From Eledone cirrhosa (lineage: Eukaryota), in assembly GCA_964016885.1 (NCBI GenBank), contig OZ024740.1:106392001-106456000 (forward strand): a stretch of 64,000 nucleotides of DNA. The letters run 5' to 3'. Below the pieces are notes generated by a model. It was not told where the DNA came from. It did no database searches and saw only the letters and a program-made list of their open reading frames with translations. Below are positions 57,308 to 57,749 of this stretch, piece after piece. Each line of letters opens with the position of its first letter. Position 1 is the stretch's first letter. Position numbers and translations under genes: made by a program.

Positions 57308-57749
57308 CTTGCTTTTATCGAGAATCTCAAATTGTAATACGTGACGTATTCTATTCTATAGCGATTGGGTCTTCAAAATGTTTATTATAAACATACAGAA
57401 TATTTTCGAATATTCTATGTTTGTCTTCACATATATATCGCTATTTCAGTTCATTAAATCCAAATTCTAATTTCTGCCGGACCGGCTACCGCTCTTTCAA
57501 ACCAGTTCCTGTACACAGCTAAGTATTCTATAAGTCTCTAGCTGTGTCGTTCTCGATAAAAGCATTGGATATGTAATCCTGATGATTTCTAATAAGAATG
57601 AAACGCGTAGGTTACTTCCCTTGCTTTTATCGAGAATCTCAAATTGTAATACGTGACGTATTCTATTCTATAGCGATTGGGTCTTCAAAATGTTTATTAT
57701 AAACATACAGAATATTTTCGAATATTCTATGTTTGTCTTCACATATATA
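57308..57749 (+). mobile_element. Retrozyme-like non-coding element: 312-bp unit, ~1.4 tandem copies, one HHR
   Basis: 57308-57437 appears identical to 57620-57749 (offset 312). Inserted in (TA)n. Confidence 0.8.
57550..57636 (+). ncRNA. Type I hammerhead ribozyme with extended stem I
   Basis: GTAATC-CTGATGA-TTTCT AATA AGAAT-GAAAC-GC-GTA (cut after 57609)-GGTTAC; distal 15-bp helix TTCTCGATAAAAGCA/TGCTTTTATCGAGAA. Confidence 0.9.

Follow-up and report, generated by a model that had tools for sequence, protein, structure and literature searches.

What kind of element leaves behind, in the middle of a long (TA)n tract, a non-coding insert that ends with the very letters with which it began, and from what kind of template was it copied? 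The question is raised by positions 57308-57750 of a 64,000-nucleotide stretch of Eledone cirrhosa DNA (the window, which here means the whole stretch analysed). A preliminary description had seen there a retrozyme-like unit and a candidate circular-RNA replicon. We argue, with good confidence, that the locus is a 1.4-unit copy of a non-LTR retrozyme, probably reverse-transcribed into (TA)n by a Penelope-like element (PLE) that targets such tracts, and that its 312-nt unit likely adds a family to the animal non-LTR retrozymes already described.

Anatomy of the insert

The insert is 443 bases long, non-coding, and laid out as R-U-R, that is, as 1.42 copies of a 312-base unit in which a repeated part (R) stands on either side of a single-copy part (U). 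Its features are as follows.

55952-58781, strand not given: large interrupted (TA)n tract, the insertion target, recognised from sequence
57308-57438, plus strand: R, copy 1; starts 10 nt past the predicted ribozyme cut and runs to an internal AT tract; 131 of 131 positions as in 57620-57750
57428-57438, plus strand: internal AT tract; fixed 3' end of family copies and putative priming site on nicked (TA)n
57439-57619, plus strand: U, single-copy part; holds the 5' half and the core of the hammerhead; covered in all four sequencing runs considered below
57549-57637, plus strand: type I hammerhead with extended stem I; predicted cut 57609/57610; spans the U/R junction
57620-57750, plus strand: R, copy 2; terminates within the 3' (TA)n flank

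The direct repeats first noticed at offset 312 are indeed identical, over 131 nt and not the 130 originally given, and the final bases of the repeat are AT microhomology with the flank. With satellite and low-complexity DNA excluded, positions 26000-64000 hold three exact repeats of at least 60 nt, the R pair being the longest. The embedding in (TA)n had also been seen correctly: (TA)n flanks the insert on both sides, which is why no target-site duplication, a feature that exceeds 4 bp when metazoan non-LTR retrozymes have one, can be read there. Two short inserts lie elsewhere in the same tract, one at 56706-56818, with a minus-strand half hammerhead core like those of the ends at 49419 and 49593, the other at 57860-57911, recurring at 47065 and at 63908-63999.

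The unit has a GC content of 34%. Read circularly on both strands, its longest ATG frame is 34 aa and its longest stop-to-stop frame 56 aa, and the locus bears neither a reverse transcriptase (RT) nor a GIY-YIG frame. Folded as a circle, the unit reaches a z of -4.4, with none of 100 shuffles as good and 54% of its letters paired. No minus-strand hammerhead core was found within it, and nothing supports RNA-to-RNA replication or the word replicon used at the outset.

The hammerhead motif

The intact hammerhead previously reported, with its GUA site, palindromic stem III and 15-bp distal stem I, is borne out by a closer reading. The core strings lie at 57579-57585 and 57600-57603; stem II (57587-57590/57595-57598) has 4 bp with a U.U at its base; stem III (57603-57608) is a palindrome of 6 nt, and the GUA triplet ends at 57609. 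The proximal part of stem I is made of 6 bp (57573-57578/57610-57615), separated by a bulged loop from a distal stem of 16 bp (57549-57564/57622-57637), 15 of them Watson-Crick and one G.U. The region 57530-57650 folds with a z of -5.46, none of 200 shuffles doing as well. The minimum-energy fold of 57549-57637 is not the active core (-34.0 against -25.2 kcal/mol), and this weighs against the ribozyme reading. At gathering level Rfam returned no match in the whole window; by E-value, Hammerhead_HH9 (RF02275) is the best ribozyme match of the motif, aligned at 57564-57629 over the full length of the model, yet at 20.6 bits (E 0.02) it stays below the membership cut-off of 52. The other 48 of the 49 rows of that scan name non-ribozyme families, mostly on the TA flanks. 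A metagenome scan with the hammerhead pattern gave no match.

As only one hammerhead is present, the locus cannot release a monomer; it would be an offspring copy.

A second unit and the covariation of the ribozyme

The window holds a comparable unit, and this provides a comparison for the ribozyme.

33742-34045, minus strand: another non-coding unit, some 304 nt long, whose hammerhead is of the type found at 57549-57637; spans from one TA tract to the next

This unit, which also has a long stem I and folds with a z of -6.71, is probably another retrozyme family. Outside the ribozyme, we saw no similarity between the two: as many as 277 of 300 shuffles score as high as U against it and 27 of 300 as high as R, and the single 7-mer common to both units is no more than chance can supply. 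When its hammerhead, at 33910 on the minus strand, is set without gaps against that of 57549-57637, all 13 pairs of stems I-III are kept, seven of them changed on both sides. The same figure is reached by six of 500 shuffles, and slid controls give 27-46% of positions paired; two sequences only enter this comparison. Judged in this way, from paired letters, the conserved ribozyme fold of the 312-nt unit is real. A core pattern written post hoc from these two motifs matches twice in the 64 kb and in none of 100 shuffles. One of these seven lies innermost in the palindromic stem III; such a pair cannot form within a single hairpin and therefore suggests pairing between two ribozymes; in the accessible parts of two papers, hammerheads with a short palindromic stem III are reported to cut as dimers (PMC6765202; PMC7229834).

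The neighbourhood of the second unit was also looked at. An Rfam E-value scan of 33700-35200 gave two matches, no hammerhead among them. Next to it, at 34087-34825 on the minus strand and again between TA tracts, a 520-nt unit is present in about 1.4 copies with a 221-nt terminal repeat 93.7% identical, a partial-tandem layout that comes with neither a complete hammerhead core nor an Rfam ribozyme match. We also looked for promoter-like patterns (octamer, CRE-like, A and B boxes): an octamer-like motif appears in the 33742-34045 unit only, and the 312-nt unit has no match to the B box.

A family in public sequencing runs

Public runs were queried at 80% likeness with one unit cut in the middle of R (57372-57683). 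The counts take in four of 23 runs (X1, X21, X4 and X5), leaving out X6 (share 0.27) and 14 rows of small share. None of the 23 runs is listed as RNA, which counts neither for nor against an RNA form of the unit. For organism A, 476 of the 17.1 million contigs of X1 match the unit, as do 9,036 of the 12.5 million raw reduced-representation reads of X21; organism C (X5) yields 2,295 contigs of 17.6 million, and organism B (X4) a single contig of 1.3 million. Each of these four runs covers 29 of 29 bins of the unit, and in two or more of the organisms sequenced the unit is repeated in many copies. The depth summed over contigs, whose minima in X1 are about 1e5, is inflated by contigs that overlap and was taken neither for a copy number nor for an R:U ratio.

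How the ribozyme varies within the family may be read from 40 of the 49 variant rows listed. Among these, the 16 positions of the core and stem III show no variant; with 38 variant places in 312 nt, the chance of a variant-free core is about 0.13, weak evidence if taken alone. In the same 40 rows, variants of the ribozyme fall at N7 (57583), in loop II (57593, 57594) and in loop I (57565, 57566, 57572), and five of seven stem variants keep their pair, that at 57577 hinging on its partner and that at 57628 breaking the pair unless compensated. At the base of stem II, a variant of 57586 converts the U.U to A-U.

Ends of the copies, putative arrays and a closed cycle

Seven contigs of X1 and 275 reads of X21 leave the unit for (AT)n at one and the same point, 57438, which is also the end of the insert at 57308-57750. 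One X1 contig has a different 5' start, beginning after (TA)n at 57386. Against the 275 exits at 57438, 3,600 reads of X21 pass 57450 into U; most R ends thus continue into U. Copies of 1.4 units alone would give about one passage for each exit, and longer arrays are therefore likely. The ratio of 13:1 is probably inflated: the X21 library was cut at AATT (57463, 57469, 57639-57642) and may favour short fragments internal to the unit, and reads running into (TA)n may be under-sampled. We infer these multimers, as no read or contig with two hammerheads was seen in X1, X21, X4 or X5. A joint that 'goes back 312' had been considered as a sign of multimers; it was rejected, since it falls inside R.

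The contig of X4, a run whose kind is unrecorded, is of a particular sort. It counts 342 nt, that is 312 plus 30 overlapping letters, and closes into a cycle at a depth of 18.5. Such a cycle may stem from an RNA, be it a circle or a tandem, or from traces of DNA in which an array was collapsed. In sequence the contig is nearer to the copy in the window (7-8 differences) than are the majority letters of organism A (about 14 places), so that the window may derive from an organism other than A.

The preliminary description had itself envisaged that all copies might be 3' ends of one long coding PLE. Among the loose ends listed, the share of contigs that continue into at least 20 unlike letters is 0 in X1, X4 and X5, and this, with the passage of most R ends into U, speaks for the contrary. 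In X21 the share running on into unlike letters is 0.51; these ends look like library chimeras, because they lie at AATT sites and agree poorly with one another. A rare coding parent of the family may exist beyond the loose ends listed, among 169 further rows.

Penelope-like elements in the window

One element of the window exemplifies a candidate class of helper.

34855-38180, plus strand: PLE, now broken, whose linker is CxCX5C (Hydra-type) and whose ends carry hammerheads and lie in (TA)n; candidate for the class of the helper only

Two PLE-type hammerhead ends flank the broken RT frame that carries this linker. In the available text of Craig et al. (2021, PMC8557442), the CxCX5C linker marks the Hydra-clade PLEs, which have hammerheads and insert almost always in (TA)n. 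The element has an inverted terminal copy of 551 nt (94.6%), with hammerheads at 34976 (minus) and 37972 (plus), and a related end lies at 53736 (plus). Further on, 49320-49692 consists of inverted PLE-type ends placed head to head (49419 minus, 49593 plus), 97.9% self-complementary over 374 nt; each stops in (TA)n, at different distances from its cut (140 and 50 nt). Strings like a hammerhead core are also found at 49113 and 49961, both on the minus strand. At 50263-52053 (minus) a PLE-type RT frame of 597 aa carries a CX4CxxC linker; its best match is a predicted protein of Octopus vulgaris (66% identity), the next matches being at most 50% identical over most of the length, and this makes an octopod host probable. 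The rest of the window comprises a 53-bp satellite at 4-25958 (about 490 copies, 92% matches) and two LINE-type RT elements on the minus strand (39521-42590 and 61102-63813), the second with RT and PHD-finger Pfam matches. For ten frames near the insert, Pfam named RT domains only, in two of the ten.

What ties the unit to this class is geometry. Counted from the predicted cut, a TA tract follows after 133 nt at 57609 and after 136 nt at 33910; at five PLE-type hammerhead ends the distance is 140, 151, 153, 50 and 61 nt. The ends at 50 and 61 nt fall outside the range of 133-153 nt and were counted against a shared geometry, and an eighth hammerhead motif departs from the pattern. In sequence there is no such tie: R has no significant similarity to three longer PLE tails in the window (31, 203 and 260 of 300 shuffles score as high), so that the helper is proposed at the level of a class only, and U has no similarity to them either.

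The behaviour of such proteins in vitro is informative. As described in the accessible part of Frangieh et al. (2024, PMC11167929), the purified protein of the Poseidon PLE PAc starts reverse transcription internally, downstream of the hammerhead and 111-118 nt into the ORF; it nicks AT-rich DNA, and its main template is uncut RNA. Mobilisation by a PLE is thus suggested here by the fixed 3' end, the common cut-to-(TA)n geometry, the internal start of reverse transcription in vitro and the presence of a Hydra-type PLE in the window. The original view is supported in so far as the unit is of retrozyme type, codes for no protein, exists in many copies, carries a hammerhead and was likely mobilised by a PLE RT.

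How the insert may have been made

We may now propose a scenario. Source loci in tandem would be transcribed, and the hammerheads would cut after sites equivalent to 57609, probably as dimers held by the palindromic stem III. A PLE protein would nick (TA)n and begin reverse transcription inside the RNA, some 133-140 nt downstream of a cut, where the AU tract equivalent to 57428-57438 could pair with the (TA)n target and serve as priming site. The enzyme would then work its way back across R, a hammerhead left uncut, U and a second R, and would halt with 10 nt to go before the next cut site, the product being R-U-R. By analogy with the retrozymes of coral, mussel and axolotl, monomers from multimeric loci may also be ligated into a 312-nt circle, and we consider it plausible, with somewhat better than even chances, that loci other than this one give such a circle in vivo.

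The age of the event is bounded by the repeats. The absence of any difference between the 131 positions of the two R copies limits their divergence to less than about 2.3% (95% bound); the recent insertion first deduced from their identity is thereby kept as an upper bound and as nothing more precise. Four letters of U (57450, 57451, 57487 and 57549) are near-private when compared with X1, X21 and X4. If these had arisen after insertion, about 5.8 differences would be predicted between the R copies, and the probability of seeing none is 0.003. Identical R copies together with four near-private letters of U are therefore better explained by a variant template copied recently than by decay after insertion.

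What was that template? R-U-R cannot come from a cut linear monomer, but either a circle or a multimer cut in part would yield it. Of these two, the partly cut linear multimer is slightly favoured, because copying stopped near a cut site (with a post hoc chance of about 3%) and because of the in vitro data on PLEs; a ligated circle is a serious contender, with somewhat less than even chances. The form in 1.4 copies, first read as what reverse transcription around a circle would leave, does not discriminate, as an uncut tandem linear transcript gives the same insert.

The wider proposal, in which a circular RNA of 312 nt was the template of the insert and is also the main transposition intermediate of the family, stands a shade lower again in our estimate. 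It draws on an insert longer than one unit, on the second unit of the window, which is about one whole unit reaching from TA tract to TA tract, on the closed cycle of X4 and on the second 5' start at 57386. Circular RNAs were moreover demonstrated by Northern blot for retrozymes of coral, mussel and axolotl (PMC7229834, available text), and a stem III that depends on dimers would presumably leave a monomer circle uncut. Against it, PLEs start internally in vitro with uncut tandem RNA as main template, the 5' end 10 nt past the cut is what a cut linear RNA would give, and the kind of run from which the X4 cycle comes is unrecorded. We also count against a reading by circles and cleavage that eight of nine Xenopus retrozyme dimers showed no cleavage in vitro, as far as the available account goes.

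It would be improbable, in our opinion, that the unit is the pseudo-LTR (pLTR) of an autonomous PLE and the insert its 5'-truncated partial tandem. The PLE literature, in its accessible part, describes just such habits: a partial tandem truncated at its 5' end is a frequent form of insertion, the pLTR holds hammerheads and (TA)n is preferred as target. The distance from cut to end is also that of PLE ends in the window. R adjoins U directly, however, with no ORF between them; the share that extends into 20 or more unlike letters is 0 among 476, 1 and 2,295 contigs, and junctions from R to U exceed exits. Besides, the hammerheads linked to PLEs in the window differ in their stems, lack the long distal stem I and are not matched to the unit by BLAST. 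Less credible still is a satellite-like spread at the level of DNA, by unequal crossing-over or extrachromosomal DNA circles, the hammerhead being an idle inheritance from a PLE: this route has been proposed for some retrozyme arrays (in the portions of the literature available), and the conservation of the core among variants is no more than suggestive, but it is at odds with an insert that lies dispersed and whose 3' end is fixed and set in (TA)n, and with a ribozyme that covaries between two units alike in end geometry and otherwise unrelated. Finally, that the assembly walked a collapsed repeat 1.4 times would account for identical R copies where the family at large shows variation of several percent, and is nevertheless very hard to believe when identical minority letters (57421, 57423, 57425) stand in both copies, when the near-private letters of U, almost absent from X1, X21 and X4, preclude a majority collapse, when the R-R identity itself points to a variant template and when the assembly resolves a 26-kb satellite.

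Comparison with known systems

The retrozyme copied by a PLE, which we prefer, belongs to a kind of element already described in coral, mussel and axolotl as well as in many vertebrates.

The metazoan non-LTR retrozymes, as presented in the available text of Cervera and de la Pena (2020, PMC7229834), have units of 150-450 nt, a range that includes 312 nt. They are non-coding, with a GC content below 50%, many copies and a self-paired fold, and they carry a type I hammerhead with extended stem I in genomes that also contain PLEs, all as here. Two axolotl ribozymes of that paper offer detailed parallels: HHR_Amex2 has a U.U at the base of stem II, and HHR_Amex1, with a one-pair stem III and a palindromic tetraloop, cleaves well only as a dimer. 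Most invertebrate motifs described there, by contrast, cleave as monomers. Neither targeting of (TA)n nor a fixed internal 3' end is described in the part of the paper available, and the likeness is one of features.

In the accessible portion of Li, Clavereau and Pollet (2026, bioRxiv 10.64898/2026.07.22.740005), retrozymes mobilised by PLEs come as monomers, dimers and multimers, in families of 51-972 bp, and the 35 genomes mentioned include no mollusc. An 'active' locus is there one with at least two consecutive units bearing complete hammerheads; the insert at 57308-57750, with one hammerhead and 1.42 units, is not of this sort. The same text gives similarity to pLTR sequences for 21 PLEs, whereas the 312-nt unit has none among the PLE ends of the window. 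Taken together, the accessible parts of these two papers and of PMC7761336 list sequence-level features of retrozymes that are found in the unit. The literature searched, which gave partial coverage and did not extend to Repbase, held no paper on a cephalopod retrozyme.

With the Hydra, Neptune and Naiad PLEs of Craig et al. and the Poseidon PAc of Frangieh et al., again from what is available of these papers, the unit has in common partial tandems, a hammerhead in a terminal repeat and microsatellite targets, and their 3' end is set by internal initiation of reverse transcription downstream of the hammerhead, as we propose here. It differs in two ways: PLEs carry an RT and a GIY-YIG domain, and the unit has neither frame; the initiation site of PAc is not homologous to its target, whereas the unit ends in an AT tract that matches it.

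Significance

Taken alone, the 312-nt element is a modest addition to a known kind. Its usefulness lies in a 3' end that is fixed, internal and set in (TA)n, and that is common within 64 kb to two retrozyme-like units and to PLE ends. This geometry makes it possible to ask, in a testable way, what autonomous element is the helper of animal retrozymes and whether it copies a circle or an uncut multimer. A 2020 review stated, in its accessible text, that the helper and the priming site of animal retrozymes could not be deduced.

A bolder view, which we put forward as a doubtful possibility, is that two unrelated retrozyme families of about 310 nt, sharing a hammerhead that acts only as a dimer, have come to copy the end geometry of PLEs that target (TA)n: their monomer circles, stable because cleavage is gated by dimers, would display, by structure and not by sequence, a site for PLE-like initiation some 135 nt past the cut, at an AU tract able to pair with the target. 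If true, such dimer-gated circles mimicking PLE RNA would name both the class of the helper and the priming site for animal retrozymes, and would offer a direct in vitro test of PLE reverse transcription on a circular template.
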